From Desulfobacterales bacterium (GTDB lineage Bacteria; Desulfobacterota; Desulfobacteria; Desulfobacterales; UBA5852): a DNA stretch of 64,000 bases. The stretch lies in assembly GCA_963674755.2 (NCBI GenBank), contig CAXXVS010000002.1:1376001-1440000 (forward strand), written 5' to 3'. Below the pieces are notes generated by a model that was given only the letters and a program-made list of their open reading frames with translations, was not told the origin of the DNA and made no database searches. Within the stretch, counting starts at the first letter, position 1, and each line of letters begins with the position of its first letter. A program made the translations under genes and the position numbers. This document shows, piece after piece, positions 2,174 through 48,396 of the stretch.

Positions 2174-2527
2174 ATGGCGTCCTCCCCGGGAGTGAGAAAG
2201 GGTTTGCCGTACCATTCGTCCTGCCGGCATATAGGACTGATTGCACCGACACGGCCGACTTGGCGGTATGGTCGTATATCCTTCCTTTTAAAGCAACTGA
2301 AGGGCGGTCGTCAAACCCTGCCTGGGCTGCGCCAACCGCTAAAAGCGCTTTAGCCGTCACCCGACCACGGCTTCAGAAGTCAGTGGATATGAGATTTTTC
2401 TTCAATTTTTCGCATTGGACTGCTAAATTCAACCCGTATCACGGCTGACTTCGTCGGCATGCGGTCGACCATCCACATAGGGATGACAAAAACCAACCCA
2501 GAGCGACAGTTGCGGGAAAGGGCATTG

Positions 2528-4075
2528 ATGGCGGACAACGAAGGATGGCGTATCGTTCTGATCGACGACGAGGAAGGCATTCGACGCGTAACCCGCATTA
2601 CCCTCGAGGATGCCGGCTACACGGTTCATACGGCCGACAATGGGGAGAGCGGACTTGCCCTTTGCGCTGAGGTTCATCCCCAGATCGTCATCACCGATGT
2701 CCGCATGCCGCGCATGGACGGCCTGACCGTCCTTAAAAAAATCAAACAGACCTATCCCGATACCGAGGTTATCGTGGCCACCGCCTTCGGTGAGATGGAC
2801 CTCGCCATCCGCGCCCTGCAGCTGGACGCATCGGATTTCATCACCAAGCCCCTGCACAGCGACGCCCTTTCCATCGCTCTGGAACGGGCCAAGGCGCGCT
2901 GCAACGACCGCAAGCAGCTCAGGGATTACACCACCTTCCTGGAAGAAGGCTGGAATGATACCACCCGGGAGCTCATTGCGGCCTTTACCTTCCAGAACAG
3001 TCTTATTGAGAGCTCCCTGGACGGCATTATCGGCTGCGATGCCGAAGACGTGGTGGTCACCTTCAACCGGAGCGCCGGGGAGATGCTGGGATATGGCAAG
3101 GCGGAGGTGCTGCGTCAGGAACGCCTGAGCCGGTTTCTGCTGCCGGAGGATGAAGCGCGCCTTAAAGCGGCCCTGCAGGAAAAGGATCGCGGTGACGGAG
3201 GCCGGCTCCCTCTTTTCGAAACCAGCCTGTGCGGTAAAAACGGGCAGCGCATCCCGGTTCAAATGGCGGTAGCGCGTATCGTCATCCCTGAGGAAAGCCC
3301 CGGAACCGTGTGCTTCATCCGGGACCTGCGCGAAATCCGACGCCTGGAACGGGAGGTCGAGGATCAGGCCCGCATCCTGCACCAGGATAAAATGATGTCG
3401 CTAGGCCGCCTGGCGGCCAGCGTGGTCCACGAAATCAACAATCCCCTGGCCGGCATTCTGAACTACTGCCGTCTGATGCTCCGGATTCTCAAGCGGGGGG
3501 AGATTTCCGCCGAACAGCTCGAAAAATTCACCCGCTATCTGGATCTGGTGGAGAAGGAGACCAGCCGCTGCTCCCAGATTGTCTCCGGCCTGCTGACCTT
3601 TTCGCGCAAATCGCCGGCCGCCTTCGGCCCGGTGGCAGTGGACGACCTGATGCAGCGTTGCATCCTGCTCTGCCAGCACAAGCTCGAACTGAACAATATC
3701 CAGTTAGAGCTGGATATCGCCGCCGGTCTGCCTGCCATCAGAGGCGATCTCAACCAATTGCAGCAATGCATCATCAACCTTGTTTTCAACGCGGCCGACG
3801 CCATGCCCCAAGGGGGCTCCTTGACGCTTGCCGCGGCCCGCGGCCAGGCCTCATCGGAGGTTTGCCTGAGGGTGACCGACACCGGCGCCGGCATACCGGA
3901 AAAGGACCTGCCCCATATCTTCGAGCCTTTTTATACCACCAAAGACGAGGGCTACGGGGTCGGACTCGGGCTTTCCACCGTCTACGGCATCATTCAAAAT
4001 CACCAGGGCAGCGTGCAGGTGGACAGCCAGTTGGGCAAGGGCACAACCTTTGTCCTGCGCCTGCCGTCAATCTGA
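2528..4075 (+). CDS. Hybrid sensor kinase REC-PAS-HisKA-HATPase
   Basis: N-terminal IDDE/ITDVRMP/TKP receiver; H-box VVHEINNPL; DTGAG, FEPFYTTK, GLGL. Confidence 0.9.
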   Translation: MADNEGWRIVLIDDEEGIRRVTRITLEDAGYTVHTADNGESGLALCAEVHPQIVITDVRMPRMDGLTVLKKIKQTYPDTEVIVATAFGEMDLAIRALQLDASDFITKPLHSDALSIALERAKARCNDRKQLRDYTTFLEEGWNDTTRELIAAFTFQNSLIESSLDGIIGCDAEDVVVTFNRSAGEMLGYGKAEVLRQERLSRFLLPEDEARLKAALQEKDRGDGGRLPLFETSLCGKNGQRIPVQMAVARIVIPEESPGTVCFIRDLREIRRLEREVEDQARILHQDKMMSLGRLAASVVHEINNPLAGILNYCRLMLRILKRGEISAEQLEKFTRYLDLVEKETSRCSQIVSGLLTFSRKSPAAFGPVAVDDLMQRCILLCQHKLELNNIQLELDIAAGLPAIRGDLNQLQQCIINLVFNAADAMPQGGSLTLAAARGQASSEVCLRVTDTGAGIPEKDLPHIFEPFYTTKDEGYGVGLGLSTVYGIIQNHQGSVQVDSQLGKGTTFVLRLPSI

Positions 4076-8564: not shown

Positions 8565-8987
8565 ATGGAAGATTTCGAACCCGTCGTTGTCGCTTTTGTC
8601 TGCAACTGGTGTACCTACACGGCCGCCGACCTGGCCGGCACGTCGCGCCTGAGCTACCCCAAGAATGTCCGGCTGATCCGGGTCATGTGCACGGGCATGG
8701 TGGACCCCCAGTACGTGATCAAGGCCCTCCTGGAAGGGGCCGACGGCGTCCTGGTGAGCGGCTGCCACCCCGGCGACTGCCATTACATCAACGGCAATTA
8801 CAAGGCCCGCAGGCGCATCAAGCTGCTCAAGGAAATTCTGCCCCAGTTCGGTTTCGAGCCCGAACGCCTGCGGCTGACCTGGATCGGCGCCAGTGACGGC
8901 ATCGAGTTCGCCGAAGTCATGCGGGAGCTCGTCGAGGAACTCAAGGCCCTGGGACCGAGCCAGGCCAAACTGTCAAAGGCGGTTTAA
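8565..8987 (+). CDS. mvhD: MvhD [2Fe-2S] subunit (all-Cys form)
   Basis: CNWCTYTAADLAG, RVMCTG, GADGV..GCHPGDCHY. Confidence 0.92.
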   Translation: MEDFEPVVVAFVCNWCTYTAADLAGTSRLSYPKNVRLIRVMCTGMVDPQYVIKALLEGADGVLVSGCHPGDCHYINGNYKARRRIKLLKEILPQFGFEPERLRLTWIGASDGIEFAEVMRELVEELKALGPSQAKLSKAV

Positions 8988-9049: not shown

Positions 9050-10189
9050 ATGGCGATCACCGCAACCATTGACGTCAGTCAGCAGGATCTGCTGGCAAGT
9101 TTGAAGACATTTGCTACCACCCTTCTCGAACAGGAGGCCATCCAAGCCATCTTGGTCCCCCAGCGGCTTCCCACGAAAGGCATGGTGATGCCCACCCTGG
9201 TGACCGATCCGGCGCACCTGGACGGGCTGGATCCCCTCTCCCCGGCCTTTCCCATGAACGGGGCCAAGGTGCTGGCCAAGCTGACCCGCCGCCCCTCCGG
9301 GGGCAAGATCGCGGCCCTCCTGCGCCCTTGTGAAATGCGCGCCTTCATTGAGCTCGTCAAGCTCAAGCAGGCCCGCACCGAGGACGTCGTATTGATCGGC
9401 CTGGACTGTCTGGGGGCCTTGCGCAACACCGATTATTTCCGCTTCGCGGGCGACGATGCCGAGGCGGCCACACGCCGCTTCACCGAGGCCATGCTGTCCG
9501 GTCAGAACGGCGCCCTGGACGGTATCGAGCTGACCGCCGCCTGCCAGGCCTGTGAAGCCTCGATCCCCACCGTGGCGGACATCGCCATCGGTTTGTGGGG
9601 CGTCGACACCAACCGGCACCTGCTGGTGGAAGCGCAAACCCCGGCCGGGGAGCAACTCTTGCAGCAGATGGGGCTGCCGGCCGGCGAAGTCCCGGCCAAA
9701 CGCCAGGAAGCGCTTAAAAAGCTGCGTGAAACCCGCACGGCCCACCGGGACGAGATGTTTGCCGCCACGGCGGCGGCCACCGACAGCATCGAGAAACTCA
9801 ACGCCTATCTGGCCAATTGCGTCAACTGCTACAATTGCCGGGTGGCCTGTCCGGTCTGCTACTGCAAGGAATGCGTGTTCGTGACGGATGTCTTCAATCA
9901 CGAACCGGCCCAGTATCTGCGCTGGGCCCAGCGTAAGGGGGCCGTCAAAATGCCCACGGACACGGTTTTTTATCACCTGACACGCCTCACCCACATGAGC
10001 ACCGCCTGCGTGGGCTGCGGCCAGTGCTCCAACGCCTGTCCCAACGATATTCCGGTGATGGAGCTCTTCCGGCTGGTGGCCCATCGCACCCAGGACGCCT
10101 TTGCCTACGAAGCCGGCCGGGATGTGACGGAAAAGCCGCCGCTGTCGGAGTTCAAGGAGGATGAATTCCAGGAAGTGGTGGGACTCTAA
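9050..10189 (+). CDS. FdhB/FrhB-like iron-sulfur protein
   Basis: RPCEMRA..ELVKLKQ, IGLDCLG, CVNCYNCRVACPVCYCKEC, CVGCGQCSNACP. Confidence 0.8.
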   Translation: MAITATIDVSQQDLLASLKTFATTLLEQEAIQAILVPQRLPTKGMVMPTLVTDPAHLDGLDPLSPAFPMNGAKVLAKLTRRPSGGKIAALLRPCEMRAFIELVKLKQARTEDVVLIGLDCLGALRNTDYFRFAGDDAEAATRRFTEAMLSGQNGALDGIELTAACQACEASIPTVADIAIGLWGVDTNRHLLVEAQTPAGEQLLQQMGLPAGEVPAKRQEALKKLRETRTAHRDEMFAATAAATDSIEKLNAYLANCVNCYNCRVACPVCYCKECVFVTDVFNHEPAQYLRWAQRKGAVKMPTDTVFYHLTRLTHMSTACVGCGQCSNACPNDIPVMELFRLVAHRTQDAFAYEAGRDVTEKPPLSEFKEDEFQEVVGL

Positions 10190-10304: not shown

Positions 10305-13300
10305 ATGCAGACGAAAATCGGCAAGGCACTTGTGATCGGCGCCGGCATCAGCGGTATTCGTGCCGCCCTGGACCTTGCAGAATTCGGCTACGGGGTCACC
10401 CTCGTCGAGCGCGCGCCGCATATCGGCGGCATCTTGAGCCAGTTGGACTACCAATTCCCGACCGACCGCTGCGGCATGTGCAAAATGCTGCCGCTGGTGG
10501 AGCGGGATGCCGGCTCCCAGTTCTGCCTGCGCAAGGGCTTGTTCCACGACAATATCGATATCCGTCTTTCCACGCAGCTGGCCTCGGTGGAAGGCGAACC
10601 CGGCCAGTTCAAAGTCACCCTGCGCCAGGAGAACAATCCGGTGGACCCGGGACTATGCATCGGCTGCGGCAAATGCGTAGACGTCTGCCCGGTGGAAACA
10701 GAAGACCGCTTCAACGCCGGCCTGGCCAAACGCAAGGCCATCTATCTGCCGGTACCCCATGCGATCCCCAATGCCTACCGCATCGATCCCGCGGTCTGCA
10801 ACCAGTGCGGCGCCTGCCAGAAGGCCTGCCCCACCGGAGCGATTCAGCTGAAAGACGAAGGCCGACAGAATTTCAAAATTCTGGTGGTGGATGACGAGCT
10901 GATCGTGCGCGACTCCCTCAAGGAATGGCTCGAAGTGGAGGGAGGGTTTGCGGTGAGCATGGCCGAGAGCGGTGCCCAAGCCTTGGAGCATATCAAGAAT
11001 GAGGGCTGCCAGCTCATGCTGCTCGACATCAAGATGCCTGGTATGGACGGGGTGGAGGTTCTCCAGAAGGCCAAGGACCTCTTTCCGGAACTGCCCGTGG
11101 TGATGATGACGGCTTACGCCACCGTAGAAACCGCGGTGGAGGCCATGAAGATCGGGGCCCTGGACTACCTTATCAAGCCCTTCGACCCGGATGCTCTGAT
11201 TCCCAAGATCATCCAAATCTATCAGGCCCTGAGCACGCCGGCCGGCCCCGAGTTGGAGGTGGGGGCCATCGTGGTCAGCGGTGGCACCAGCTACTATGAC
11301 CCCGCTCAGGGCAAAGACACCCACGGCTATGCCACCCTGCCGGATGTCGTGACGAGCATCGAATTCGAGCGCCTGCTCAGTGGCACCGGGCCCTCGGCCG
11401 GCAAGCTGGTACGGCCCTCGGACGGGCGTCCCGTGCGTTCCATCGCCTGGCTCCAGTGCGTGGGCTCGCGGGATATCCAGAGCGACGCCGATTTTTGTTC
11501 CACCATCTGCTGCATGTACGCCATCAAGGAGGCCATGGTGGCGCGTCGGCGGGCCGCCGAAGCCGGGGCTTCCATCGACACCGCGATCTACTACATGGAC
11601 ATGCGCACCTTCGGCAAGTCCTTCCAGCGCTACCGGGACCGTTCAGAAGCCGAAGGGGTGGCCTTCAAACGCGGGCGCGTGCATACCGTGGTTCCGGACC
11701 AAACGACCGACGATCTTCAAATCCGCTGGGTGCAGACCGACGGCACGGTACAGGTCGACCATGCCGATCTGGTGGTCCTGAGCATCGGCCAGCGGCCGGC
11801 CGAGGGCGCCCAGGCCCTCATGGAAACCCTGGGCATCGGGGAGAATCCCTGGGGCTTTGCCCGCACCGAACCCTTCTCCCTGACCCGCACCGCGCGTCCC
11901 GGTATCGTAGCCTCGGGCTCGTTTGCCGGTTTGAAGGATATCAGCGAATCCGTCATTCAGGCCAGTGCGGCCGCTCTGGCCGCCTCCCAGACCATTCACA
12001 GCGCCGGCGGCAGCATCGGCATCAAAGAATCCGAAGCCCCGGCCTACGAGAACGTCAGCCGGCAGCTTCCGCGCACCCTGGTGGCGGTCTGCACCTGCGA
12101 CGGTGCCGTTGCCGAACGGATCGACCGCCAAGCCCTGGAGGCCCACCTGACCCGTGATCCCGCCGTGGATCAGGTCCATTTCCAGGAACGCCTTTGCACG
12201 GCCGAGGGCTGGACCGATCTCGAAAAAACGATCCGGCGCCAGCGGCCCAACCGGCTCCTGATCGGCGCCTGTCTGCCCTATGGCTTCGTGCGTAAGCTGA
12301 AACAACTGGGCCGCGATGTTGCCCTGGATCCGCGCCTCATGGAGGTGGTGGACATCCGCACGCACACGCTGGCCGCAGAACCGGACGATGCGTCGACAGG
12401 GCCCGACCTCCCGGCAGCCCTCATCAAACGAACCCTGGCCATGGGTGTCACCCGGTTGCAGCATGCCTCGCCGCTGCCGGTGGCCACGGTACCGGTGTTC
12501 CAACGCGCTCTGGTGGTGGGCGGCGGCATTGCCGGCATGACGGCAGCCCTGTCCATCGCCGACCACGGTTTCGGAGTGGACCTGGTGGAACAGGGCGACC
12601 AACTCGGCGGGAACCTGCACTGGCTGCGCCACACGATCGACGGCGAAGAAACCACCCCCTTGCTCGAAACGACTTGCAGCCGGGTGGAAGGCCATCCCCA
12701 AATCGAGGTCCACACGGCCACCCGCATCGTGGCCGCTTTCGGTCAGGCCGGCGCCTTCTATACCACCCTCGAAGACAGCGAGGGCAAGGCCCGCCAGATC
12801 ACCCACGGGGCTGCTATTCTGGCCACCGGGGGCACTGAGGCCACCACGACCAGCTACGGTTACGGCGCCAGCGAGCGGATCATCACCCAGAAAATCCTGG
12901 AAACCCGGCTCCACGACGGCACCCTCGACCCGAAAGATCTCAAAAGCGTGGTCATGATCCAGTGCGTGGACTCGCGGGAGGAACCCCGCAACTACTGCAG
13001 CCGGGTATGCTGCCCGACCACCCTCAAGCATGCCCTGGCCCTCAAAGCGGCCAACCCCGCGTTGCCCATCGTGGTCTTCTACCGCGACATGATGGCCACC
13101 GGTTTCCTGGAAACCTATTTCACCCAGGCCCGCAAGGCCGGGGTGATCTTCATCCCCTACCGTCTGGACAATAAGCCGCAGGTCACGGCGGCCGGCGACG
13201 GGGGAACGATCGAGGTTGCCGGCCAGGAACCGTTTCTCGATCGACCGGTCACCATTGCAGCGGACCTGCTGGTGCTGGCGACCGGCATCGTACCGGCCCT

Positions 13301-13751
13301 GGCCCCGGAACTGGCCGAAGCCTACGGGGTCGATCGCGACCAGGATGCCTTTTTCCAGCAAGCCGAATCCAAGTGGCGGCCGGTGGATGCCCTCAAGGAA
13401 GGCGTCTTCGCCTGCGGGATCTGCCTGTCCCCGCGCAATGTGGAGGAATCCATCGCCACGGCGGAAGCCGCCGCCGAACGGGCCCTGCGCATCGTGGCCA
13501 GCGAGCGGGTGGCGGCGGGCAGCATCATCGCCGGCGTCCATGAAAGCCTATGCGCGCTGTGCGAACGCTGCATCGAGGCCTGTCCCTACGGCGCCCGGCT
13601 GCTGGATCCGGATGAAGACCGCATCGTGGTCAATCCGGTCATGTGCCAGGGCTGCGGGGCCTGTGCCGCCGTCTGTCCCAATGATGCCGCCTATGTAGAA
13701 GGATTCGATGCCGATCGGCTGTTGGACGTGATCGATGCGGCCCTTAATTAG
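10305..13751 (+). CDS. hdrA: Double-domain HdrA-like flavoprotein with an internal response-regulator receiver domain
   Basis: Two FAD-binding HdrA repeats (GAGISG..CVGSRD..CSTICC; GGGIAG..CVDSRE..CSRVCC), ferredoxin motifs, and a complete REC at ~10872-11231. Confidence 0.9.
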   Translation: MQTKIGKALVIGAGISGIRAALDLAEFGYGVTLVERAPHIGGILSQLDYQFPTDRCGMCKMLPLVERDAGSQFCLRKGLFHDNIDIRLSTQLASVEGEPGQFKVTLRQENNPVDPGLCIGCGKCVDVCPVETEDRFNAGLAKRKAIYLPVPHAIPNAYRIDPAVCNQCGACQKACPTGAIQLKDEGRQNFKILVVDDELIVRDSLKEWLEVEGGFAVSMAESGAQALEHIKNEGCQLMLLDIKMPGMDGVEVLQKAKDLFPELPVVMMTAYATVETAVEAMKIGALDYLIKPFDPDALIPKIIQIYQALSTPAGPELEVGAIVVSGGTSYYDPAQGKDTHGYATLPDVVTSIEFERLLSGTGPSAGKLVRPSDGRPVRSIAWLQCVGSRDIQSDADFCSTICCMYAIKEAMVARRRAAEAGASIDTAIYYMDMRTFGKSFQRYRDRSEAEGVAFKRGRVHTVVPDQTTDDLQIRWVQTDGTVQVDHADLVVLSIGQRPAEGAQALMETLGIGENPWGFARTEPFSLTRTARPGIVASGSFAGLKDISESVIQASAAALAASQTIHSAGGSIGIKESEAPAYENVSRQLPRTLVAVCTCDGAVAERIDRQALEAHLTRDPAVDQVHFQERLCTAEGWTDLEKTIRRQRPNRLLIGACLPYGFVRKLKQLGRDVALDPRLMEVVDIRTHTLAAEPDDASTGPDLPAALIKRTLAMGVTRLQHASPLPVATVPVFQRALVVGGGIAGMTAALSIADHGFGVDLVEQGDQLGGNLHWLRHTIDGEETTPLLETTCSRVEGHPQIEVHTATRIVAAFGQAGAFYTTLEDSEGKARQITHGAAILATGGTEATTTSYGYGASERIITQKILETRLHDGTLDPKDLKSVVMIQCVDSREEPRNYCSRVCCPTTLKHALALKAANPALPIVVFYRDMMATGFLETYFTQARKAGVIFIPYRLDNKPQVTAAGDGGTIEVAGQEPFLDRPVTIAADLLVLATGIVPALAPELAEAYGVDRDQDAFFQQAESKWRPVDALKEGVFACGICLSPRNVEESIATAEAAAERALRIVASERVAAGSIIAGVHESLCALCERCIEACPYGARLLDPDEDRIVVNPVMCQGCGACAAVCPNDAAYVEGFDADRLLDVIDAALN

Positions 13752-13939: not shown

Positions 13940-14524
13940 ATGACTCTCTCGCCCCCCTCCCGCCGGGAAAGCGGGGCCCATCCCGCCCCGGAGGCCCTGG
14001 AGCCCATCCAGGAGAAGATCAGGGCCTGCATCCAGTGCGGGACCTGCACCGCCTCCTGCCCGAACGAATTTGCCATGGATCTCACGCCTCGCCATCTATG
14101 GCGCATGGTGCTCATGGGGGAAACCGAGGCCATCTTCGCCAGCCAGACCTTCACCCTCTGCTCGGCCTGCTACTCCTGCACGCTACGCTGCCCGCGTGGT
14201 CTGCCGCTGACCGAGGCCATGCACGACCTCAAGCAGATGGCCTATCGCGGCCGCATGGCACGCTACAAACCCAGCACCGCCTTTTACGGCCACTTTATGG
14301 ACACCATTCGCCGCCACGGCCGGATCCGGGAAACCGAATTCATCTCCCGCTACTTCATGACCATGGCACCCAGCAAGCCGTTGCTCCCGCTCGGCTATAG
14401 CGGGCTCGGATGGCGGCTGCTGCGTAAAGGAAAAATGGCCATCGAATACCCTTTTGCGGCCCCGGGCAAGCGTTCCCTGGAAAAGGTCTTTCAAAAAGCT
14501 GAAAGCATGGAGGCATCCGAATGA
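13940..14524 (+). CDS. hdrC: HdrC-like 2x[4Fe-4S] subunit
   Basis: CIQCGTCTASCP and CSACYSCTLRCPRG; overlaps the hdrB start. Confidence 0.85.
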   Translation: MTLSPPSRRESGAHPAPEALEPIQEKIRACIQCGTCTASCPNEFAMDLTPRHLWRMVLMGETEAIFASQTFTLCSACYSCTLRCPRGLPLTEAMHDLKQMAYRGRMARYKPSTAFYGHFMDTIRRHGRIRETEFISRYFMTMAPSKPLLPLGYSGLGWRLLRKGKMAIEYPFAAPGKRSLEKVFQKAESMEASE

Positions 14525-15402
14525 GCTACCTCTACTATCCCGGCTGTTCGCTGACCGGAACCGCGCGGGAGTACGACCTGGCCACCCGCGCCGTGATGGA
14601 CGCCATGGGTGTCCCGCTCACCGAATTGGAGGAGTGGACCTGCTGCGGGGCCAGTGCCGCCGAAGCCTGCTCCGAGTTGCTGGCCCTGGCCCTGCCGGCT
14701 ATCAATCTGGCGATCGCCGAGAAAATGGACGGCAAGCAGGACGTCCTGGTGCCCTGCAGTGCCTGCTATCTCAATTTAAAAAAAGCCAACGAGACCCTGC
14801 GGCAGGACGGCAAGACCCGGGAACGGGTCAACAGCGTCCTGGCCGAAAAGGAACTAACCCTGAAGGGGTCGGTGGGGGTGCGGCACCTTCTGGACGTGCT
14901 GGCCACCGACCTGGGGGCGGAGACGGTGCGCCGGAAGGTCAAGGTAGACCTGTCGCATCTGACCATCGCCCCCTATTACGGCTGCCAGTGCCTGCGACCC
15001 TATGCGGTGTTCGACGACCCTGAAGAGCCCCGCAGCATGGAACCGCTGATCCGGGCCACGGGGGCCCGGGTGCATCCCTGGCAGATGGGGGCCAAATGCT
15101 GCGGCGCCTCCCACATGAATACCAAGATGGAAGTGGCCCTGGAACTGGTGCACGCCATCCTGCAGGCCGCCCGTGGCGCCGATGCCATCGTGACGGTCTG
15201 CCCCATGTGCCAGATGAACCTGGAGGCCTATCAGGACAAGATCAACCGGCGCTACGGCGACGTATCCTCGGTGACGATTCTCTATTTGCCCCAGTTGATC
15301 GGCATGGCCTTCGGGATTTCCGACGAAGACCTGGGCCTGGGCCTGAACCTGGCCATCGACGACCGTTTTCTTAGCAAACACAAGACAGCCGTCCCGGCCT
15401 GA
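14521..15402 (+). CDS. hdrB: Heterodisulfide reductase subunit B
   Basis: YYPGCS, WTCCGA, PCSAC, YYGC, KCCGA, CPMCQMNL (two complete CCG domains). Confidence 0.92.
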   Translation: MSYLYYPGCSLTGTAREYDLATRAVMDAMGVPLTELEEWTCCGASAAEACSELLALALPAINLAIAEKMDGKQDVLVPCSACYLNLKKANETLRQDGKTRERVNSVLAEKELTLKGSVGVRHLLDVLATDLGAETVRRKVKVDLSHLTIAPYYGCQCLRPYAVFDDPEEPRSMEPLIRATGARVHPWQMGAKCCGASHMNTKMEVALELVHAILQAARGADAIVTVCPMCQMNLEAYQDKINRRYGDVSSVTILYLPQLIGMAFGISDEDLGLGLNLAIDDRFLSKHKTAVPA

Positions 15403-15705: not shown

Positions 15706-15799
15706 ATGAACAGAAAGGCATGGGCAAAAGACAAAACCTATCCTGTCCCTCCATTTGAGGGGACGTTCACGGTTTAAACGAAGCATAAAGGAGATCATC

Positions 15800-17098
15800 A
15801 TGGGCGAAGCAGCCATCCAAATCGAACCTGAACGGTCCAGTGCCTTCCTATATCACGTGAAGGAGATGCTGCCGGAGGGTGGCAATCTGGACCTCTGTCT
15901 GACCTGCGGAGCCTGCGCGTCGGGGTGCCCGGCCACCGGCCTGCACGGCATGGACCCGCGCAAATTCCTGCGCATGGCCGCCCTGGGTCTGGACGAGGAG
16001 ATCACCAGCACGCCATGGGTCTGGATGTGCAGCATGTGCCAGCGCTGCATCTATGTCTGCCCCATGAAAATCGACATTCCGGCCCTGGTTTACCAGGCGC
16101 GGGCCGCCTGGCCGCGCGAAGAGCGCCCCAAGGGCATCCTGGGATCCTGCGACATGGCCCTGCGCAACGAAAGCTGCAGTGCCATGGGCGCTTCGCCGGA
16201 AGATTTCCAGTTTGTGGTGGAGGACGTTCTGGAGGAAGTCCGTGAAAGCCAGCCCGGCTTCGAAGACCTGCAGGCTCCCGTCGACAAGCAGGGGGCCCAC
16301 TTCTTCCTGAACCAGAACTCCCGGGAACCGGTCACCGAGCCGGATGAAATGGTCCCGCTCTGGAAGATCCTGCACCATGTCGGGGCGGACTGGACTTATG
16401 GCAGCAAAGGCTGGGGGGGAGAAAACTACTGCATGTTCCTGGCCGACGACGAGAACTGGAAACACGTGGTGGCCACCAGCATCGGGCAGGCCAACGACCT
16501 GGGGTGCAAGGTCTACCTCAACACCGAGTGAGGGCACGTCACGTACGCTGTCCGGGCCGGACAGAAAAAATTCAACATCGCCACCGATCTTGAAATTGCC
16601 AGTATCTACCAATACTACGCCCGCTGGATTCGGGAAGGCAAACTCAACGTCAACAGCGACTGGAATAAAGATCTGAAAATCAAGTTCACGGTGCAGGATC
16701 CCTGCCAGATCGTGCGCAAGAGCTACGGCGATCCCGTGGCCGACGATCTGCGCTACGTCGTCAAGACCCTGGTGGGGGAAGATAATTTCATCGACATGTA
16801 TCCCAACAAATCCAATAACTACTGCTGCGGGGGCGGAGGTGGCTTTTTGCAGTCGGGCTACAACGAAGAACGACGAGAATACGGCCGTCTCAAACTGGAC
16901 CAGATTCTGGCCACCGGGGCTGACTACTGCATCGCGGCCTGTCACAACTGCCATGCCCAGATCCACGATCTGGCCGAACATTTCGAGGCCGCCTATCACA
17001 CCGTGCACCTGTGGACGCTGATTTGCCTGTCTTTGGGGATTTTGGGTGAAAATGAACGGGAGTACCTCGGGCCGGATTTGGCCGAAGTCGGTTTATAG
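15800..17098 (+). CDS. Selenocysteine-containing DsrK/HmcF/HdrD-like (2x[4Fe-4S] + CCG) oxidoreductase, 432 aa
   Basis: ORFs 15755-16531 and 16691-17098 are in the same frame; TGA at 16529-16531 gives NTE-U-GH at the ECGH Cys position; QDPC..NYCCGGGGG..ACHNC downstream. Confidence 0.88.
16548..16564 (+). promoter_or_regulatory. Putative bacterial SECIS hairpin
   Basis: CTGTCCG-GGC-CGGACAG beginning after a 16-nt spacer 3' of the TGA; G-led loop. Confidence 0.75.
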
Positions 17099-17289
17099 AG
17101 GAGGAAGAGATGCATGCCGTACCATCTGCGGTGAGTCACTGCCCCGTTCATTAGGCAGATCCGCAGATGATCCGCCAACGTCCGGCTGTCATGGCATAAT
17201 GAAACGGCGTGCCACCGCATCTCCCTCAATGGCACGACCGGGCTTTGTTTTGATCCCGCGGACGGTCGCTGAAAGAAAAAACAATTATT

Positions 17290-19644
17290 ATGGTGCACCT
17301 TTTCCGGCAACTGCGCAACACCCTGGTGTTCAAACTCGTCCTGGCGGTGGGTCTGACCCTTCTGGTGAGCATTGCGGTCTGGGCCTATTTCAACATCCGC
17401 TACGAGAACACCAAGCTCACCCAGCACATTCTCAGTGAAACCGCCCGCTTCGGCAACACGATCAAGCTGGGCACCCACTATGCCATGATGACCAACGCCC
17501 GGGACGACATCAACCAGATCATCCTCAACATCGCCCGCCAGGAAGATATCGAAACGATCCGTATCTACAACAAAGCCGGCCAGATCAAATATTCCAATCG
17601 GCCGGAGGAGGTCGACCGGATCACCAATATCAAGGCCGAAGCCTGCGACGTCTGTCACCGCTGGGATCCGCCCCTGGAAACCCTGGCTCCCGAACAGGGG
17701 ACCCGCTTTTTTACCGGCCCGTCCGGCCAGCGGGTCATCGGGGTCATTACGCCCATCCTCAACGAACCGGGATGTTCGGAAGCCTGCCACTTCCATCCCG
17801 TCGGCAAAAAGGTCCTGGGGGCGCTGGACGTGGTCTTGTCCCTGGGAAAGGCCCAGGCCGAAATGCAGCGTTTCAAACGCGGCATTCTTCTGCTGGGGGC
17901 CTTTGTCTTTCTGGTCACCTCGGCCATCATCATGGTGGTGATGCTGCGCTTCGTCAATCGGCCCATCCGCCACCTGATCGACGAAACCCGCCTCATCGCC
18001 GAAGGCGATTACATCACCAAAGTTCCGGTGGACGGCGAGGACGAGATCAACCAGCTGGCCATGGCGGTCAACCGCATGGGGGATGAAATCGCCCGCAGTC
18101 AGGCGGATCTGCGCCGGCAGCGCAACGAGTACCAGAACCTCTTTGAGAACGTCCCCTGCGAAATCGCCGTGCTCGACCGGGAGTTCCGTCTGGTGAACTT
18201 CAACCGCAACTATGCCGCCAAATTCAATCCGGCTCCCGGGGATTATTGTTACAAGGCTTACAAAGGGCGCGAAACGAAATGCGAAAAGTGCCTGGTGGAA
18301 AAGACCTTCCAGGGCGCCGGGCCCCAACTGGGTGAGGAAACGGGTTGCGACAAGGATGGCCGGCCCGCCCACTGGCTGGTGGTCACCTCTCCCCTGGCGG
18401 ATGATACCGGGCAGGTTACCGGCGCCATGGAAATGAACCTGGATCTAACGGACATGAAGGTCCTGGAGGACAAGCTGCGCCGCTCGGAAATGAAATACCG
18501 GGCCTTCTTCAATAACATGCCCAATCCCGTTTTCGTGCTGGACGCGGCGGACCTCACCATCCTGGATTGCAACGCCAGCGTAAAAGCCGTGTATGCGTAT
18601 GAAAAATATGATATACTGGGCACATCGTTTCTCAATTTTTTCGTGGACGAGGAACAACAGGCTTTTGCCAAGGCGATTCCCACCTTGCCCTTCTTGAGCC
18701 GAGTCCGGCAAGTCAACAAATCGGGAACCCCGCTCTTCGTCAACATCCATATCTCCCCCGCTGATGACGAAGGCCGCAAGGTATTCCTCGTAACCACCAG
18801 CGATATCACCAAACGTCTCGAAGTCGAACAACAGCTCATACAGGCCAGCAAAATGGCAACCCTGGGAGAAATGGCGACCGGTGTGGCGCACGAATTGAAT
18901 CAACCCCTGTCGGTCATCAAAACGGCCAGCAGCTTTTTCATGAAGAAGGTTCGCAACCAAGAGCCGATCCAAGACGATATCATGCTGACCTTGACCGAGG
19001 AAATCGACAGTCACATCAACCGCGCCACCAAGATTATCAACCACATGCGCGAATTCGGGCGCAAGTCCGACATGGATATCGTCCCCGTTCAGATCAACGC
19101 GGTCATCAAGCGGGCCTTTGAAATCTTCAGCCAGCAACTTAAAGTGCGTGGCATCGATGTCCATTGGGAATTAGGGCAACATTTGCCGGCCATCGAAGCA
19201 GATCCCAGCTGTCTTGAACAGGTTTTCATCAATCTGCTGGTCAACGCGCGGGATGCCATCGAGTCGGATTGGGACGATGGTGCCGGACAGCTGCTGGAAC
19301 GGCCTTCCGACTATCCGGCCAAAGCGATTTTTATTCGCACCCGATGTCAGGACGACCACGTCATCGCAGAGGTGGAAGACAGCGGTAAGGGCATACCGGA
19401 GGGGATTCGCGACAAGATTTTCGAGCCTTTTTTCACCACCAAGGAAGTCGGCAAAGGGACTGGGCTGGGTCTTTCCATCAGCTATGGGATCGTCAAGGAC
19501 TGCCGTGGCGACATCCGGGTCGATTCCCTTCCCGGTCGGGGGGCACGGTTCATCATAAGCTTTCCCGCATCCTGCCCGGGAAATACCGGCAGCATCCTAC
19601 TGGCACGCAACCGCATGAACAATGAAGCATCAACTCCGGGATAA
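17290..19644 (+). CDS. Membrane sensor kinase: periplasmic c-heme domain-HAMP-PAS-PAS-HisKA-HATPase
   Basis: Two TM helices flanking CDVCH and [40 protein letters not shown]. Confidence 0.88.
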
Positions 19645-19648
19645 CGTC

Positions 19649-21364
19649 ATGTTTCTGCGATACGATCAGATCGGCGAAATATTCGACCTCCTGTCGCTGG
19701 GGGTCATCGTGCTATCGCCCGATCGCAAAATCGTATCACTCAATCGTACTGCCGAAACCCTAACGGGCAAACGGGCACAAGATGTCCTGGGCGAGAACTG
19801 CTTCGACATCTTTCTGGACTACCTATGCGGCGGCATATGCAAATATCAAGAAAAACCGGGGTTGGAAATCGAAACGTCCGTGTCCGAAATCGATTTCATC
19901 GCACCCAACCAGAAGCAATGCAGCCTGACCAAGATTGAATCCCCGCTTTTCGGTGCCGATCACCGCCTGCTGGGATGCATCGAGGTTTTTCAGGACCACT
20001 CCGCCTTCCGCGATCTCATCAAACGCATTCGATTCGAGGACCTTCGCCTTAAAATCATTCTGGACAATCTCGACATCGGGATTTTGACCGTCGACCGGGG
20101 CGACCATATCTCCTTTTTCAATACCATGGCGGAAAAAATTACGGGCTTTGCCCGCACCGATCTTCTGGGGAAATCATGCGCCAGGGTATTCGGCCCGCGC
20201 TTCAGCAAGGAGTTCCAGCCGCCTCCGAACCAACTGGAGGACGGCAACGGCCATTTCCGGGTCGAAACCGACCTGTCCACGCGCGAGGGTCAGCGCATCC
20301 CTGTCAGAACCAACTATGTCCCCTTGAAGAATGAGGAGGGCGAAGTGGTGGGGGGATTGACCACCATTTCCGATCTCTCCCTCCAATACCATTATAAAAG
20401 CGCCATTCGGGGGCAGTACACCTTCTATGACATGGTGGGCCGCCACCCTGAAATGCAGAAGATCTTTGAAATTATTCCGGTCATCGCGTCCAGCGATGCC
20501 ACCGTACTCATCGAAGGGCCCACCGGCACCGGTAAAGATCTGCTGGCCAAAATCATCCACAACGCCAGCGAGCGTGCGAACCGGAAAATGATCAAGGTGA
20601 ACTGCGCTTCTCTGCCCGACAATCTGCTGGAGTCGGAAATGTTCGGGTATGTCAAGGGGGCCTTTACCGGAGCCGAACGTGACAAGCCAGGCCGCTTTCA
20701 AATGGCCGACGGCGGCAGCATTTTCTTGGACGAGATTGGTGATCTGCCGCTGCCCTTGCAGGCTAAACTGCTGCGCGTCATTGAGGACCGTGAATTCTAC
20801 CCTCTCGGCAGCCGCCAAACGACCCAGGTGGATGTGCGCATTATTTCAGCCACCAACCAGAACCTGAAGCAGCTTGTGGAGGCCAAAAAATTCCGCGAAG
20901 ATCTTTACTACCGCCTCAATGTGATGCGCCTTGAGCTACCGTCCCTGAAGGAACGCAAAAGCGACCTGCCGCTGCTGATCGAACACATTCTCAAGCGCAT
21001 CTGCACCCACAAAGGCACCACCATCAACCACATCGACGAGTCGGCCATGGAGGTGCTCCTCAATTATGACTATCCCGGCAACGTCCGCGAACTCGAAAAC
21101 ATTCTTGAGCATGCCCTCATCATCTGTCGCGGCGATATGATCGAGAGAAAGCACTTTCCGCTCTGGCTTCTCAAGGATGCCCCCCAGGAACCCTCGGACG
21201 ACGGCAGCATCGGATACGTTGGGCGGGTATGGGATGAAAAGGAACGGATCATCGATGCGCTCCGTCGCTGTCGATGGAACAAAAGCCAAACAGCACGCGC
21301 TCTGAATATGGACCGCACCACCCTGTGGCGCAAGATGAAAAAATACCGGATCGGCGAAAACTGA
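19649..21364 (+). CDS. PAS-PAS sigma-54 enhancer-binding protein
   Basis: GPTGTGKD, ESEMFG..GAFTGA, FLDEIG, PGNVREL, C-terminal Fis HTH; no REC domain. Confidence 0.92.
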   Translation: MFLRYDQIGEIFDLLSLGVIVLSPDRKIVSLNRTAETLTGKRAQDVLGENCFDIFLDYLCGGICKYQEKPGLEIETSVSEIDFIAPNQKQCSLTKIESPLFGADHRLLGCIEVFQDHSAFRDLIKRIRFEDLRLKIILDNLDIGILTVDRGDHISFFNTMAEKITGFARTDLLGKSCARVFGPRFSKEFQPPPNQLEDGNGHFRVETDLSTREGQRIPVRTNYVPLKNEEGEVVGGLTTISDLSLQYHYKSAIRGQYTFYDMVGRHPEMQKIFEIIPVIASSDATVLIEGPTGTGKDLLAKIIHNASERANRKMIKVNCASLPDNLLESEMFGYVKGAFTGAERDKPGRFQMADGGSIFLDEIGDLPLPLQAKLLRVIEDREFYPLGSRQTTQVDVRIISATNQNLKQLVEAKKFREDLYYRLNVMRLELPSLKERKSDLPLLIEHILKRICTHKGTTINHIDESAMEVLLNYDYPGNVRELENILEHALIICRGDMIERKHFPLWLLKDAPQEPSDDGSIGYVGRVWDEKERIIDALRRCRWNKSQTARALNMDRTTLWRKMKKYRIGEN

Positions 21365-21408
21365 AACCGCCTGCCCCGTCTGTGGGCCCACCGGTGGGAA
21401 CGCTAACC

Positions 21409-22923
21409 ATGGCAAAGGAAAAAATACTCATCGTCGACGATGAAGAGGGTATCCGCAAAGTTCTGGGGATCTCCCTGACCGACCGGGGCTATACTGTCCT
21501 GAGGTCCGAGAACGCTGTGGAGGCCTTGCAGGTCTTTAACGCCGAGCAGCCGGATATCGTCCTGACCGACATCAAAATGCCCGGGATGGACGGCATCGAA
21601 CTCCTACGTCGTCTCAAGCGGACCAATCCCGATACGGAAGTCGTGGTCATCACCGGCCACGGCGACATGGACCTGGCCATCAGGAGTCTCAAATACGAAG
21701 CCACAGACTTTATTACCAAACCCATCGACGATGCCCATTTGGATCGGGCCCTGCAAAAATCCAGAGAACGCATCGCCCTGCGCAATCAGTTGCGGCAATA
21801 CACCGAAAACCTGGAAAGCCTTCTTCAGCAGAAATCCGAACGTCTTGCCCTACAAACGGAGAACGGTACCCAACCGAACCTGTTTGACCGTCTGCCGGGA
21901 TATGTTACCGTCCACAATGCACACTATCAGATTACCTCCGCCAACCACCGCTTTAAAGAAGACTTCGCCTTTGATCCCCCATCCGGCGCGTTTTGTTATG
22001 AAGTGGTCCGGGGACGCACCGCCCCCTGCGAAGACTGCCCGGTGGCGCTCACTTTCGCGAATGGCAAATCCCACCAATGCGAACTGACCTACAAAACCCC
22101 TTCCGGCCAGGATTGCCATCTCTTCGCCTGGACGACGCCCCTGCGGGAAACCAGCGACAAAATCGGCGCCGTGATAATGATGGCCACCGATATCTCCCCT
22201 ATTCTGGACATGCGCGACCATCTGTCCTCCCTGGGGCTGATGATCGGCTCGGTCTCCCACAGCATCAAGGGCTTGCTGACCGGCTTGGACGGCGGGGTTT
22301 ACATGCTGGACAGGGGGTTTGCCAAGGACGACGCCGATCAGATCGGAGAGGGGCTCGATATTGTCAAAATAATGGTGGGGCGCATCAAGAACATGGTCCT
22401 GGACGTCCTGTATTACGCCAAGGAACGGGACCTGGCGCTTGCTTCCTGCCGGATTTTGGACCTGGCCGAAGAAACGGCCGCTGTGGTGCGGCCACGCATC
22501 GCGTCATCGGGCATCGATCTGATCTGTGATTTCGCCGATGACCTGAACGATTTGGAATTTCAAGTCGATCCGGATCAGCTGCGGGCCGCTCTGGTCAACA
22601 TCCTCGAAAACGCGCTGGATGCCTGCCGGGAGAAGAGCGATCCGACCGGTCCGCAGATTGCCTTCCGGGTCTATCCTGAGGACCGCTACGTGGTTTTCGC
22701 CATCGCCGACAACGGGGTCGGCATAAGCGAGGAAGTTCAATCCCGCATCTTTAACCTGTTCTTTTCCTCCAAGGCCACCCAGGGGACCGGCATCGGGCTT
22801 TTCATTACCCGCAAGATCATCCGTCAGCACGGCGGCGAGATTATCGTAACCTCCCAGCCCGGTGAAGGCACCCTCTTCCTGGTCCGTATCCCCCTGGACG
22901 CTCCGCCGCCGCAAAATCCATAG
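21409..22923 (+). CDS. Hybrid kinase REC-PAS-HisKA(atypical)-HATPase
   Basis: IVDDE/LTDIKMP/TKP receiver; H-box SVSHSIKG; DNGVG, GTGIGL. Confidence 0.85.
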   Translation: MAKEKILIVDDEEGIRKVLGISLTDRGYTVLRSENAVEALQVFNAEQPDIVLTDIKMPGMDGIELLRRLKRTNPDTEVVVITGHGDMDLAIRSLKYEATDFITKPIDDAHLDRALQKSRERIALRNQLRQYTENLESLLQQKSERLALQTENGTQPNLFDRLPGYVTVHNAHYQITSANHRFKEDFAFDPPSGAFCYEVVRGRTAPCEDCPVALTFANGKSHQCELTYKTPSGQDCHLFAWTTPLRETSDKIGAVIMMATDISPILDMRDHLSSLGLMIGSVSHSIKGLLTGLDGGVYMLDRGFAKDDADQIGEGLDIVKIMVGRIKNMVLDVLYYAKERDLALASCRILDLAEETAAVVRPRIASSGIDLICDFADDLNDLEFQVDPDQLRAALVNILENALDACREKSDPTGPQIAFRVYPEDRYVVFAIADNGVGISEEVQSRIFNLFFSSKATQGTGIGLFITRKIIRQHGGEIIVTSQPGEGTLFLVRIPLDAPPPQNP

Positions 22924-46521: not shown

Positions 46522-47907
46522 TCAATTTGCGGTAATGTTCTTCTTGGAACTGATCCCGTAACGTTTCATTCGGTTCCAGATCGTAACCCGGGTCACACCC
46601 AGCCGTTTCGCGGAGGCCGATTGGTTTCCTCCGGTCGCTTCCAAGGCTTCGATGAGCTCTATTTTTTTTATTTCTTCCCGGTTGATGGAAACACGTTTAG
46701 CGGATCTTGAAGTCTTTTTTCCGTCGGTTATATTCGTTGGCAAGTGCTCGGGTTGAATCGTTCCCCCCTGGCAAGTGACGCAGGCGTACTCGAACGCGCT
46801 TTTCAACTCACGCACGTTGCCGGGCCAGGAGTAATTCATCAGGGCCTCCATGGATTCCCGGGAGATGGCGGTGAGATCCTTGCTGACCTTCAGTTGAATC
46901 TTGCGAAAAAAAGCCTCCGCTAACAGCGGGATGTCTTCGGTCCTTTCGCGCAACGGCGGGAGATTGATCGGGATAACGTTAATACGGAAATATAGATCTT
47001 CCCGGAAAATGCCAGCATTAATCAGTTTCATAAGGTCCCGGTTGGTTGCCGAAATGATCCTAACGTCCACCGGAATTGACGCGTTGGCCCCCACCCTCTC
47101 AATAATTTTCTCTTCAAGAACCCGCAACAGCTTCACCTGAGTGGCCAATGGCAGGTCCCCGATCTCATCCAGGAAAATATTCCCCCCGTGTGCTGTTTCA
47201 AATCGTCCGGACCGGTCTTTGACGGCGCCCGTATAGGCGCCCTTGACATGACCGAACAGCTCACTTTCCAGCAACGATTCAGTCAGGGCGGCACAATTGA
47301 CTTTGACATAAGGCCCCCGATATCGTTCACTCAACCGGTGGATTGCCCTGGCCACCAGTTCTTTACCGGTCCCACTTTCACCATAAATAATTACCGGTGC
47401 ATCCGAGCGGGAGGCGTTGGTGATCAGATCGAAGACTTTCTGCATGTGCGCCGACACGCCGATGATGCCCTGAAACTTGTCAGCGGATCGCAGTTCACGC
47501 TGGTATTCGGCGATGCGGTTATCCTTTTCAATCAGGTCCGTAATGTCCGTGACCGTTTCCACCGCCCCAATGACGTTGCCATGATCATCATGAAAAACAG
47601 AAGCGTTTTTAAGGGCGTGGATGGCGCGACCGTCTTTATGGCTGAAAATGCAACGGCGCCGCCGCATATTGCCGTCCTGAAAAAGCGCACACCAGTGGCA
47701 GCCCCGTCTTTCCCGAACTTCCTGGCAGATGTCGCAGTTTAAAACCGAGCAGTCCCTGCCGATCATTTCATCTTTCGAAAACCCGGTAATGCCTTCAAAC
47801 GCCTCGTTAACATAGATAATGATGCCCTGCTCATCCACGACCATGATCCCGTCGCTGATGGTGTTGGCTACCGTGCGCCAATATCGGTCCAGTTCATGTT
47901 CAAACAT
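46522..47907 (-). CDS. PAS sigma-54 enhancer-binding protein, divergent from locus 2
   Basis: GESGTGKE, ESELFG..GAYTGA, WPGNVREL, C-terminal HTH; no REC domain. Confidence 0.92.
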   Translation of the reverse strand: MFEHELDRYWRTVANTISDGIMVVDEQGIIIYVNEAFEGITGFSKDEMIGRDCSVLNCDICQEVRERRGCHWCALFQDGNMRRRRCIFSHKDGRAIHALKNASVFHDDHGNVIGAVETVTDITDLIEKDNRIAEYQRELRSADKFQGIIGVSAHMQKVFDLITNASRSDAPVIIYGESGTGKELVARAIHRLSERYRGPYVKVNCAALTESLLESELFGHVKGAYTGAVKDRSGRFETAHGGNIFLDEIGDLPLATQVKLLRVLEEKIIERVGANASIPVDVRIISATNRDLMKLINAGIFREDLYFRINVIPINLPPLRERTEDIPLLAEAFFRKIQLKVSKDLTAISRESMEALMNYSWPGNVRELKSAFEYACVTCQGGTIQPEHLPTNITDGKKTSRSAKRVSINREEIKKIELIEALEATGGNQSASAKRLGVTRVTIWNRMKRYGISSKKNITAN

Positions 47908-47918
47908 TTAGGCACGCC

Positions 47919-47933
47919 TGTTAAATTTTAACA
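47919..47933. promoter_or_regulatory. Palindromic putative UAS
   Basis: TGTTAA-ATT-TTAACA ~145 bp upstream of the sigma-54 promoter, with extra TGTTAA/TTAACA half-sites. Confidence 0.55.
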
Positions 47934-48064
47934 CGTGTTAATCGCTAATTTTTTAGCACTTTAACATGACGGGAGCAATATTTTTTGGAAATTTTTTATT
48001 CAAGTCAGTTCAATAGGTTGAATTCTCATAAAAATCATGTGCGCTCAGATAGATAGACGCTATT

Positions 48065-48080
48065 TGGCACCATAGTTGCT
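48065..48080 (+). promoter_or_regulatory. Sigma-54 promoter of Hdr-Met locus 2
   Basis: TGGCACCATAGTTGCT, a perfect TGGCAC-N5-TTGCW. Confidence 0.85.
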
Positions 48081-48120
48081 GTTAAGAAGCTCCTGCGAGT
48101 ATCAAAAGGACTTCCTGATT

Positions 48121-48393
48121 TTGGAAAAATTAGCGGATTATACAGTGGATTTTAGAGGGGCCATTAAGTCCCTTACCTTGCTGAAATTGACGCATGTATT
48201 CAGAGGGATGAAAAGTGACGAGGTCGTACGAATCGTGGGGCTGGATCCGGACACACGCAAGGATCTTTTCAAAGTTCTGCCAGCGCTATCCTATGAATTT
48301 ATCATGGAAGAAGAACCTGACGGTGAATTTTGCAGTATCCATCTCAAAAAGAGAGATCGCAAATTGCATAAGTATCTTCACGAAAAGGAGTAG
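48121..48393 (+). CDS. TusA/SirA-fold small protein lacking the CPxP cysteine
   Basis: DYTVDFRG..LLK..MKSDEVVRI..DP..DL..IHLKK pattern; TTG start after AAAGGA, downstream of the promoter. Confidence 0.55.
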   Translation: MEKLADYTVDFRGAIKSLTLLKLTHVFRGMKSDEVVRIVGLDPDTRKDLFKVLPALSYEFIMEEEPDGEFCSIHLKKRDRKLHKYLHEKE

Positions 48394-48396
48394 CCC

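Follow-up and report, generated by a model that had tools for sequence, protein, structure and literature searches.

Why does a flavoprotein of the HdrA type carry, within its own fold, an intact receiver domain of the two-component kind? HdrA-type complexes constitute the energy-coupling core of methanogens, many sulfate reducers, and anaerobic aromatic degradation, and the question is raised by one gene in a 64,000-nt stretch of the genome of Desulfobacterales bacterium (UBA5852; GCA_963674755.2, contig CAXXVS010000002.1, positions 1,376,001–1,440,000, forward strand), which is referred to here as the window and in which all coordinates are given. The gene (10305..13751, plus strand) encodes a 1148-aa protein of the heterodisulfide reductase (Hdr) subunit A type, designated HdrA-REC (P0001), which was analysed by translation, Pfam, phmmer searches against the PDB, AlphaFold2 (AF2) modelling, and Foldseek. 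Our preferred answer, to which we assign a probability of approximately 0.6, is that P0001 is an enzymatic response regulator, in which a kinase would phosphorylate residue D241 of the receiver (REC) domain and thereby tune a conformational gate, the path of electrons on the ferredoxin side, or complex assembly.

The receiver domain and its insertion site

The reading frame from 10305 to 13751 is open throughout (1148 aa, zero internal stops), and the start at 10305 is backed by the lengths of homologues (~1140–1160 aa); the longest frame of the same open reading frame (ORF) opens at 10161 and would overlap the upstream gene. The REC domain (aa 190–309; 10872..11231, plus strand) was recognized by PF00072, by its predicted fold, and by its conservation. 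The PF00072 match covers aa 192–301 and positions 1–109 of the 111 positions of the model (E = 1.4e-30; 106.1 bits versus a cutoff of 30.2), well outside what chance would give, and in the Pfam search it is flanked by 4Fe-4S motifs (aa 113–181) and by pyridine-nucleotide-disulfide-oxidoreductase/flavin adenine dinucleotide (FAD) motifs. The motifs CQKACPTGAI, VVDDE (aa 194), LLDIKMPG (aa 239), MMTAY (aa 267), LIKPF (aa 289), and EVGAIVV (aa 318) follow one another in P0001. From the alignment of REC-bearing homologues, the acidic pocket was assigned to D196 and D197 (codons 10890..10895), the predicted phospho-acceptor Asp to D241 (11025..11027), the switch Thr to T269 (11109..11111), and the conserved Lys to K291 (11175..11177), which is followed by P292 (all on the plus strand).

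In the AF2 prediction, aa 191–310 adopt the (βα)5 fold of receivers, with predicted local distance difference test (pLDDT) values of 82–95 in 10-residue blocks. The elements assigned by DSSP are β1 (191–195), α1 (199–212), β2 (216–220), α2 (223–233), β3 (237–241), α3 (248–259), β4 (265–269), α4 (274–283), β5 (285–290), and α5 (295–310); D241 ends β3, T269 ends β4, and K291 lies directly after β5. A complex prediction of REC (aa 186–311) against three other parts of P0001 (aa 1–185, 312–575, and 576–735), run without controls, gave a score of 0.00 (mark, 0.32), which speaks neither for nor against an interaction.

REC enters HdrA at the end of the inserted 2×[4Fe-4S] ferredoxin, between positions 309 and 311. 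These two positions can be regarded as adjacent because the match to the HdrA chain 8rvv_A runs to residue 309 and resumes at residue 311; judged from this alignment, the insertion cost no HdrA sequence. The paralogue P0002 in the same window (50671–53694, 1007 aa, 38% identity) exhibits a single clean gap opposite aa ~190–315 of P0001 and resumes at QVGAVVL. An earlier sequence-only reading of this DNA had claimed a complete REC domain within the HdrA of 10305–13751, with all of the above motifs and the Asp codon at 11025–11027, and had described it as a clean domain insertion, as opposed to two adjacent genes joined together. The translation and the PF00072 match bear out the former claim, and the paralogue gap and the 8rvv_A match, in which no HdrA residues are lost, bear out the latter.

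Among the NCBIfam receiver models, those of ZraR, AtoC, FixJ, NtrC, and NtrX ranked highest for REC; the ZraR, AtoC, and NtrC models match aa 187–300 only and fall far below their cutoffs. P0001 is no NtrC-family sigma-54 activator, as PF00158 and HTH_8 were both absent in the Pfam search.

Domain organization of the host protein

The sequence-only reading had named the protein simply HdrA, which is correct as to type but understates it: from its domain organization, P0001 is a fused double HdrA (type II/BamE-like), which would form a heterodimer by itself. In the phmmer search, four stretches of P0001 were matched to the single HdrA chain 8rvv_A, i.e. aa 6–184 to residues 141–309, aa 312–518 to residues 311–513, aa 589–756 to residues 1–164 (the N-terminal Fe-S domain of HdrA), and aa 969–1148 to residues 465–643. 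Module 1 (aa 1–560) consists of a TrxR-like FAD domain, the inserted 2×[4Fe-4S] ferredoxin, and REC, and module 2 (aa ~589–1148) of the HdrA N-terminal Fe-S domain, a second TrxR-like domain, and a C-terminal ferredoxin. The Cys pair C56/C59 is confined to module 1 and the N-terminal domain to module 2; such complementarity is the mark of a fused double HdrA as we take it from the available text of PMC9012536.

The two ferredoxins likewise occur once each. The inserted ferredoxin domain (aa 113–181; 10641..10847, plus strand; Pfam Fer4 families) has its sole copy in module 1, and the C-terminal ferredoxin, with Fer4 matches at aa 1076–1128, has its sole copy in module 2. The eight Cys ligands of the inserted ferredoxin (C118, C121, C124, C128, C165, C168, C171, and C175) are all invariant among 16 diverse REC-bearing homologues. 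The same 16 sequences invariantly retain K408 and E355, which align with K409 and E356 of 5odc_A, residues given as key for the bifurcating FAD of HdrA in the accessible part of PMC12054007. The second module also keeps a Lys (K908) aligned to HdrA K409, and GxGxxG motifs are located at aa 12–17 and 739–744. The AF2 model of P0001 (129-row alignment) has a mean pLDDT of 92.9 and a predicted template modelling score (pTM) of 0.92, and its best fold matches in Foldseek are the HdrA chains 8rvy_A, 7bkd_A, and 5odc_A. All NCBIfam HdrA models remain below cutoff for P0001 (HdrA2, 642.6 bits versus 1100).

Conservation of the receiver domain

Conservation was assessed in an alignment of 135 REC-bearing sequences, comprising the query, 119 other database matches, and 15 of the 16 REC-bearing cluster representatives, and reaching down to ~42–48% overall identity; the sequences are related to one another, and the counts do not represent independent events. 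D241 and P292 are kept in all 135 sequences, T269 and K291 in 134 each, and, among the 134 sequences ungapped at these positions, D196 is kept in 134 and D197 in 133. The conservation of the D, T, and K residues among homologues, on which the sequence-only reading had made its proposal depend, was therefore found as expected.

In a set of 16 diverse full-length homologues, REC exceeds all other segments of the protein in conservation, with a mean pairwise identity of 65.0%; the corresponding values are 61.8% for the FAD-N/ferredoxin segment, 49–52% for the remaining catalytic segments, and 28.2% for the N-terminal domain together with the linker. Within REC, the active-site loops are near-invariant and α4 is the most conserved helix (5 of 10 positions invariant), while α2, α5, and both linkers are variable. 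REC is evidently under strong purifying selection, and the distribution of conserved positions is the pattern expected of a working phospho-switch whose α4–β5 face meets a conserved, putative partner.

Authenticity, distribution, and origin of the insertion

Both REC junctions are bridged by Logan contigs from three studies: contig X1 record 1 covers 10500–11534 with 0 differences, X3 record 9 covers 10500–11700 with 2 differences, and the stretches 10500–11038 and 11009–11700 are covered by X5 records 17 and 22, respectively. The source sample may be among these runs; no RNA run is listed as containing the stretch. In addition, the same gene architecture recurs at 79 genome loci of different species.

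A 191-aa query (aa 150–340) spanning the end of the ferredoxin, REC, and the restart of HdrA was used to survey the distribution of the insertion (E ≤ 1e-40). Of the 401 genomes sampled from the order, 187 contain this junction-spanning segment (140 of 278 high-quality genomes and 92 of 174 genera), and the matches listed for the order extend over almost the whole query. When the phylum was sampled evenly, the segment was present in 10 of 401 genomes, i.e. the window genome, three others of its order, and six genomes in four other families. The carriers include cultured strains, namely Desulfonema magnum, Desulfatirhabdium butyrativorans, and Desulfobacterium sp. N47. Tandem HdrAs lacking REC are much more widely distributed: 166 of the 401 phylum genomes match one of them (P0124) at E ≤ 1e-200, the best match to P0124 in this sample having 52% identity. 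Of the best 150 cluster representatives (50% identity), 16 contain REC at the site seen in P0001, and the other 134 lack it. The two checks that the sequence-only reading had proposed at this level, read support across the junctions and a search for the HdrA plus PF00072 architecture with its synteny, thus both came out in favour of a real and recurrent gene, with conserved hdr neighbours (see below).

A FastTree phylogeny (989 columns, with the REC columns removed) was built from 129 full-length sequences, 55 REC-bearing and 74 REC-less, taken from the database matches and the cluster representatives; it was midpoint-rooted and represents one topology only. In this tree, 54 of the 55 REC-bearing tips fall in one clade of 55 tips (support 0.74; next nodes outward 0.976, 0.942, and 1.0), which is nested among REC-less tandem HdrAs. 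This placement points to essentially one insertion event. The remaining REC-bearing tip, P0029, falls outside the clade and looks mosaic, its N-terminal half being similar to the REC clade and its aa 561–730 to the paralogue; it appears to be either a recombinant or an assembly chimera.

The closest paralogous REC in the same genome shares 47% identity with the HdrA REC, and a recent acquisition from a paralogue of this genome was rejected on that value. Together with the NCBIfam ranking, it indicates that the donor was probably an NtrC-family regulator and that the event is old. It is possible that the receiver was moved or copied into HdrA from an ancestral activator.

Gene neighbourhood of HdrA-REC

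Upstream of HdrA-REC, all on the plus strand, lie genes for a REC-PAS-HisKA-HATPase hybrid kinase (2459..4075; Pfam), a single-domain receiver-like protein (P0273; 4441..4995; PF00072, E = 3.2e-11), an HdrL-type subunit in which HdrA is interrupted by an NfnB/GltD-like NAD(P)H module (P0003; 5091..8528; Pfam, NCBIfam, and PDB phmmer), an MvhD-like [2Fe-2S] adaptor (8565..8987; PF02662, E = 7.2e-56), and an FrhB/FdhB-like Fe-S flavoprotein (9050..10189; PF04432, E = 2.1e-8, plus Fer4 families). Downstream, Pfam identified an HdrC-like protein (13940..14524, plus strand), an HdrB-like CCG-domain subunit (14521..15402, plus strand), and a ferredoxin-like protein (15755–16531). These are followed on the plus strand by a 784-aa candidate sensor kinase (P0274; 17290..19644; Pfam, NCBIfam, and synteny), a PAS-AAA+-HTH sigma-54 activator without REC (19622..21364; Pfam), and a REC-PAS-HATPase hybrid (21274..22923; Pfam). 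From this gene content, P0001 probably represents the flavin/iron-sulfur core of a soluble Hdr-like complex composed of HdrL, MvhD, an FdhB-like subunit, HdrA, HdrC, and HdrB.

Neighbours were counted only in those related loci that have enough flanking sequence, and the denominators therefore differ. On the upstream side, the FdhB-like gene recurs in 65 of 68 loci, MvhD in 56 of 59, HdrL in 39 of 47, and the receiver-like protein, upstream of hdrL, in 32 of 46; on the downstream side, HdrC recurs in 48 of 65, HdrB in 44 of 61, and the membrane kinase, on the same strand, in 37 of 53. The statement of the sequence-only reading that kinases flank the gene agrees with these counts and with the Pfam assignments of the neighbours. 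The gene order corresponds to that of locus VIII of Desulfobacterium autotrophicum HRM2, for which the available text of the genome paper (PMC2702500) describes hdrL/hdrA4 with hdrCB and with response regulator and kinase neighbours, and no receiver in HdrA.

The NAD(P)H module of HdrL enters HdrA close to the REC site. In P0003, aa 4–289 correspond to HdrA 5–291 and aa 774–1136 to HdrA 289–641 (PDB phmmer), which places the entry point at ~289–291, ~20 residues ahead of the REC site at 309/311. Two genes of one operon have therefore received different domains at the same edge of the inserted-ferredoxin domain, and this edge seems to tolerate large insertions.

No sigma-54 −24/−12 consensus (≤1 mismatch) was found upstream of the hdrL-hdrA operon; overall, the pattern was matched 3 times, versus 2.5 expected by chance. 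Between the ferredoxin-like gene and the kinase gene, a region of ~760 nt (16532–17289) contains no listed plus-strand ORF of ≥80 aa, and a gap of similar size precedes the kinase in the closest related loci, L003 and L004. This gap may hold a promoter or a small gene.

The candidate sensor kinase and other local signalling proteins

P0274 consists of a transmembrane segment, an extracytoplasmic domain, a second transmembrane segment, HAMP, two PAS domains, HisKA (H534), and HATPase. Its extracytoplasmic stretch (aa ~36–197, between the two hydrophobic segments) contains CDVCH (aa 119; window ~17644–17658) and CSEACH (aa 162; ~17773–17790). The window copy was compared with 40 orthologues: of these 41 kinases, 36 retain CxxCH (4 are gapped and 1 is different), 37 retain CxxxCH (4 are partly or wholly gapped), and 40 retain the HELNQP motif that contains the HisKA residue H534. 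The Pfam match of P0274 to the Mcp40H-20 sensor family (PF21563), which we take to be a family of heme-c PAS-like sensors, is sub-threshold (E = 6.8e-4). Taken with these motifs, the extracytoplasmic domain looks like a heme-c or metal redox sensor. The first PAS region of P0274 is also rich in Cys (C320, C331, and C334).

The best NCBIfam matches of P0274 are AtoS (3.2e-66) and ZraS (3e-43), both below cutoff; kinases of the AtoS/ZraS type pair with NtrC-family receivers. The sigma-54 activator whose gene overlaps the end of the P0274 gene has PAS domains in the place of a receiver. In this genome, the phospho-site of P0273 is occupied by Asn (IILNCMM), and among the 24 aligned copies of its family (that of the window and 23 orthologues) many have Asp and others Asn or Ala. 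With no receiver in the activator and Asn in P0273, the REC domains of HdrA-REC and of the hybrid kinases are the only intact acceptors in the locus. HdrA-REC is the most obvious local phospho-acceptor on these grounds, although adjacency does not prove partnership.

Possible roles of the receiver domain

The organization of the locus suggests, but does not establish, that the target of a kinase signal is the enzyme and not its gene. D241 would be phosphorylated by a sensor kinase, for which the AtoS/ZraS-like membrane kinase conserved downstream is the likeliest candidate, and phosphorylation would rearrange the conserved α4–β5 face, so that the packing of REC on the enzyme or on a partner subunit would be altered. 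The altered packing would in turn tune a conformational gate, the ferredoxin-side electron path, or complex assembly. REC is inserted at the C-terminal edge of the sole inserted ferredoxin, the low-potential exit in solved HdrA/BamE complexes. According to the accessible portions of PMC13518236 and bioRxiv 10.64898/2026.04.10.717634, the low-potential branch leads from FAD via the mobile cluster of the N-terminal domain to the inserted ferredoxin, and conformational flexibility gates transfer in HdrA-type complexes. Phospho-control of the enzyme, which includes the phosphorylation of D241, the kinase responsible, and the effect, is plausible and fits the conservation.

A more specific version is doubtful, namely that bifurcation is under direct post-translational control in which a heme-c-sensing membrane kinase reads the periplasmic or extracellular redox state and phosphorylated D241 causes the α4–β5 face to lock or release the mobile low-potential arm, which comprises the cluster of the N-terminal domain and the inserted ferredoxin. 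If it were true, the ferredoxin-side flow of a cytoplasmic Hdr-like complex would be switched within seconds and not via transcription.

Several observations weigh against an enzymatic response regulator driven by the neighbouring kinase. The genome holds at least 142 REC matches, so that a partner kinase is not assignable from adjacency alone. The membrane kinase is not immediately downstream in 16 of the 53 loci, and none of the upstream partners was matched in the locus of Desulfonema magnum (L038). P0124 lies inside the REC clade and lacks REC, which we read as a loss, and P0126, at the base of the clade, has retained REC, but its pocket is degenerate (DP, G for T, and H for K). As these two proteins show, a working switch is not a prerequisite for the enzyme.

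Two-component systems are known to include phosphate sinks and branched relays, and HdrA-REC might likewise be phosphorylated without the enzyme being the output. REC would then act as a sink for phosphate, as a branch point, or as an input device, and would shape the signalling by which the hybrid kinases and the sigma-54 activator control the transcription of the locus; in the last case, the ability of REC to take up or hold phosphate would depend on the conformation or redox state of the enzyme. The locus is indeed dense in signalling proteins, as it encodes a PAS-type sigma-54 activator and a receiver-like protein in addition to two hybrids of REC and kinase, and P0274 is without an adjacent REC-bearing DNA-binding partner. 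However, a free single-domain REC would suffice for such a role, whereas here about half of the species sampled from the order have the domain at precisely the same position of a 1148-aa enzyme, and its α4 face is more conserved than expected of a surface with no partner. We therefore consider this explanation unlikely.

We regard it as quite unlikely that REC works free of phosphorylation, as a structural or docking module that, e.g., binds HdrL, the FdhB-like subunit, or ferredoxin, or stabilizes the pseudo-dimer; the conservation of its pocket would then be due to the binding of a metal or ligand. P0126, which retains the domain despite its degenerate pocket, and the Asn that the neighbouring P0273 has at its phospho-site in this genus would fit this explanation, and atypical receivers independent of phosphorylation are known, e.g. 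in D. vulgaris, as described in the available text of PMC3333781. The five catalytic residues are nevertheless kept in 133–135 of 134–135 sequences and the loops are near-invariant, which is the signature of a working phospho-switch, and the conserved neighbours of the gene include a kinase from the family that matches this type of receiver. Finally, an assembly chimera or a frame artefact was rejected as having a negligible probability: nothing was found in its favour, although one database homologue (P0029) does have a mosaic appearance, and the bridging contigs from three studies, the 79 loci, the 187 of 401 genomes of the order, and the open frame all oppose it.

The second Hdr locus

The window contains a second Hdr locus (46522–55745), which comprises genes for a divergent PAS-type sigma-54 activator, ferredoxin-like and MTHFR-like proteins, the REC-less double HdrA (P0002; 50671–53694), a MetV-like protein (DUF5981), and MetF. 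This locus resembles the Moorella MetFV-HdrABC-MvhD type. A perfect TGGCAC-N5-TTGC was located at 48065–48080, 317 nt ahead of the first gene; matches in the whole window are no more frequent than by chance. In genomes of other Desulfobacterota, many of the REC-less tandem HdrA matches have one TGA codon in frame, and the window copy has none. This codon may specify selenocysteine, which has reportedly been found in HdrA/HdrL of D. autotrophicum.

Comparison with known systems

The methanogen HdrAs of the HdrABC-MvhAGD, Fdh-Hdr-Fmd, and Elp-Hdr complexes (5ODC, 7BKB/7BKD, and 8RVU/8RVY) are the best matches of P0001 both in sequence (E = 3e-114 to 8e-110) and in fold (target-normalised TM score of 0.77–0.78), and have in common with it the K409/E356 residues and the eight-Cys inserted ferredoxin. 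In contrast to P0001, they are single units of ~650 aa that form homodimers, and they have no REC.

Closer in architecture are the type II or fused HdrAs, i.e. HdrA3/HdrA4 of anaerobic methanotrophic archaea (ANME) and methanogens and the HdrA of the Moorella MetFV-HdrABC-MvhD complex, which, according to the accessible text of PMC9012536 and PMC12054007, consist of two fused units that form their own heterodimer. These texts also describe the complementary N-terminal domain and Cys197-type ligand seen in P0001 and the clustering with FdhB-like, MvhD, and HdrBC genes. No REC is reported in this group, and the terms 'receiver' and 'response regulator' occur 0 times in PMC12054007. As far as these sources describe them, ANME HdrA3/4 differ further in domain order, which is permuted; P0001 has the module without the N-terminal domain first, and its host is bacterial.

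In Geobacter metallireducens, the class II benzoyl-CoA reductase contains BamE, a fused HdrA dimer (bioRxiv 10.64898/2026.04.10.717634). In the available part of that preprint, BamE resembles P0001 in having a Cys pair near residue 59 of the N-terminal module (C56/C59 in P0001) and MvhD-like and HdrB/C/D-like partners, and the Bam complex is conformationally gated. BamE has no REC, and the word 'receiver' never occurs in the preprint. As described there, the Bam complex also contains tungsten BamB and HydABC-like BamGHI partners, which are absent from the HdrA-REC locus, and the second FAD of BamE is held by Gln, whereas both modules of P0001 keep Lys (K408 and K908).

With regard to regulation, the sigma-54 response regulator DVU2394 controls the adh-flx-hdr operon of Desulfovibrio vulgaris, according to the accessible text of PMC3333781. 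It parallels the control proposed for the HdrA-REC locus in that a sulfate reducer places an Hdr-type complex under a two-component system with an NtrC-family receiver. As described there, however, control by DVU2394 is transcriptional and exerted by a separate DNA-binding protein, whereas in P0001 the receiver is a part of the enzyme.

A receiver in HdrA was not found described in the main texts of the literature searched, supplementary domain tables and output censuses in subscription journals being outside the scope of that search, and the same main texts yielded no description of an external signal acting on the HdrA conformational gate. Two surveys of HdrA domain architecture list no receiver in HdrA in the parts available (bioRxiv 10.1101/2024.09.26.615249; PMC12054007). 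The architecture is nevertheless already present in databases under automatic names, i.e. 'response regulator' or 'FAD-dependent oxidoreductase' at NCBI and 'heterodisulfide reductase subunit A' at JGI, and is common there, as the sequence-only reading had cautioned it might be. P0001 thus represents a natural and widely conserved HdrA with a standard phospho-switch at its low-potential arm, which provides a handle on the gating of bifurcation. As its carriers make up about half of the sampled Desulfobacterales species and include cultured strains, the proposal is testable.

In the known enzymatic response regulators CheB, PleD/WspR, RpfG, and RssB, REC is N-terminal and connected by one linker, and phosphorylation acts on the activity of the protein. 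P0001 resembles them in carrying REC on the same polypeptide as an effector that does not bind DNA, and differs in that its REC is internal, connected by two linkers, and located within the fold of a redox enzyme. If the preferred reading of P0001 as an enzymatic response regulator is true, the outputs of two-component systems would extend to a core redox enzyme.

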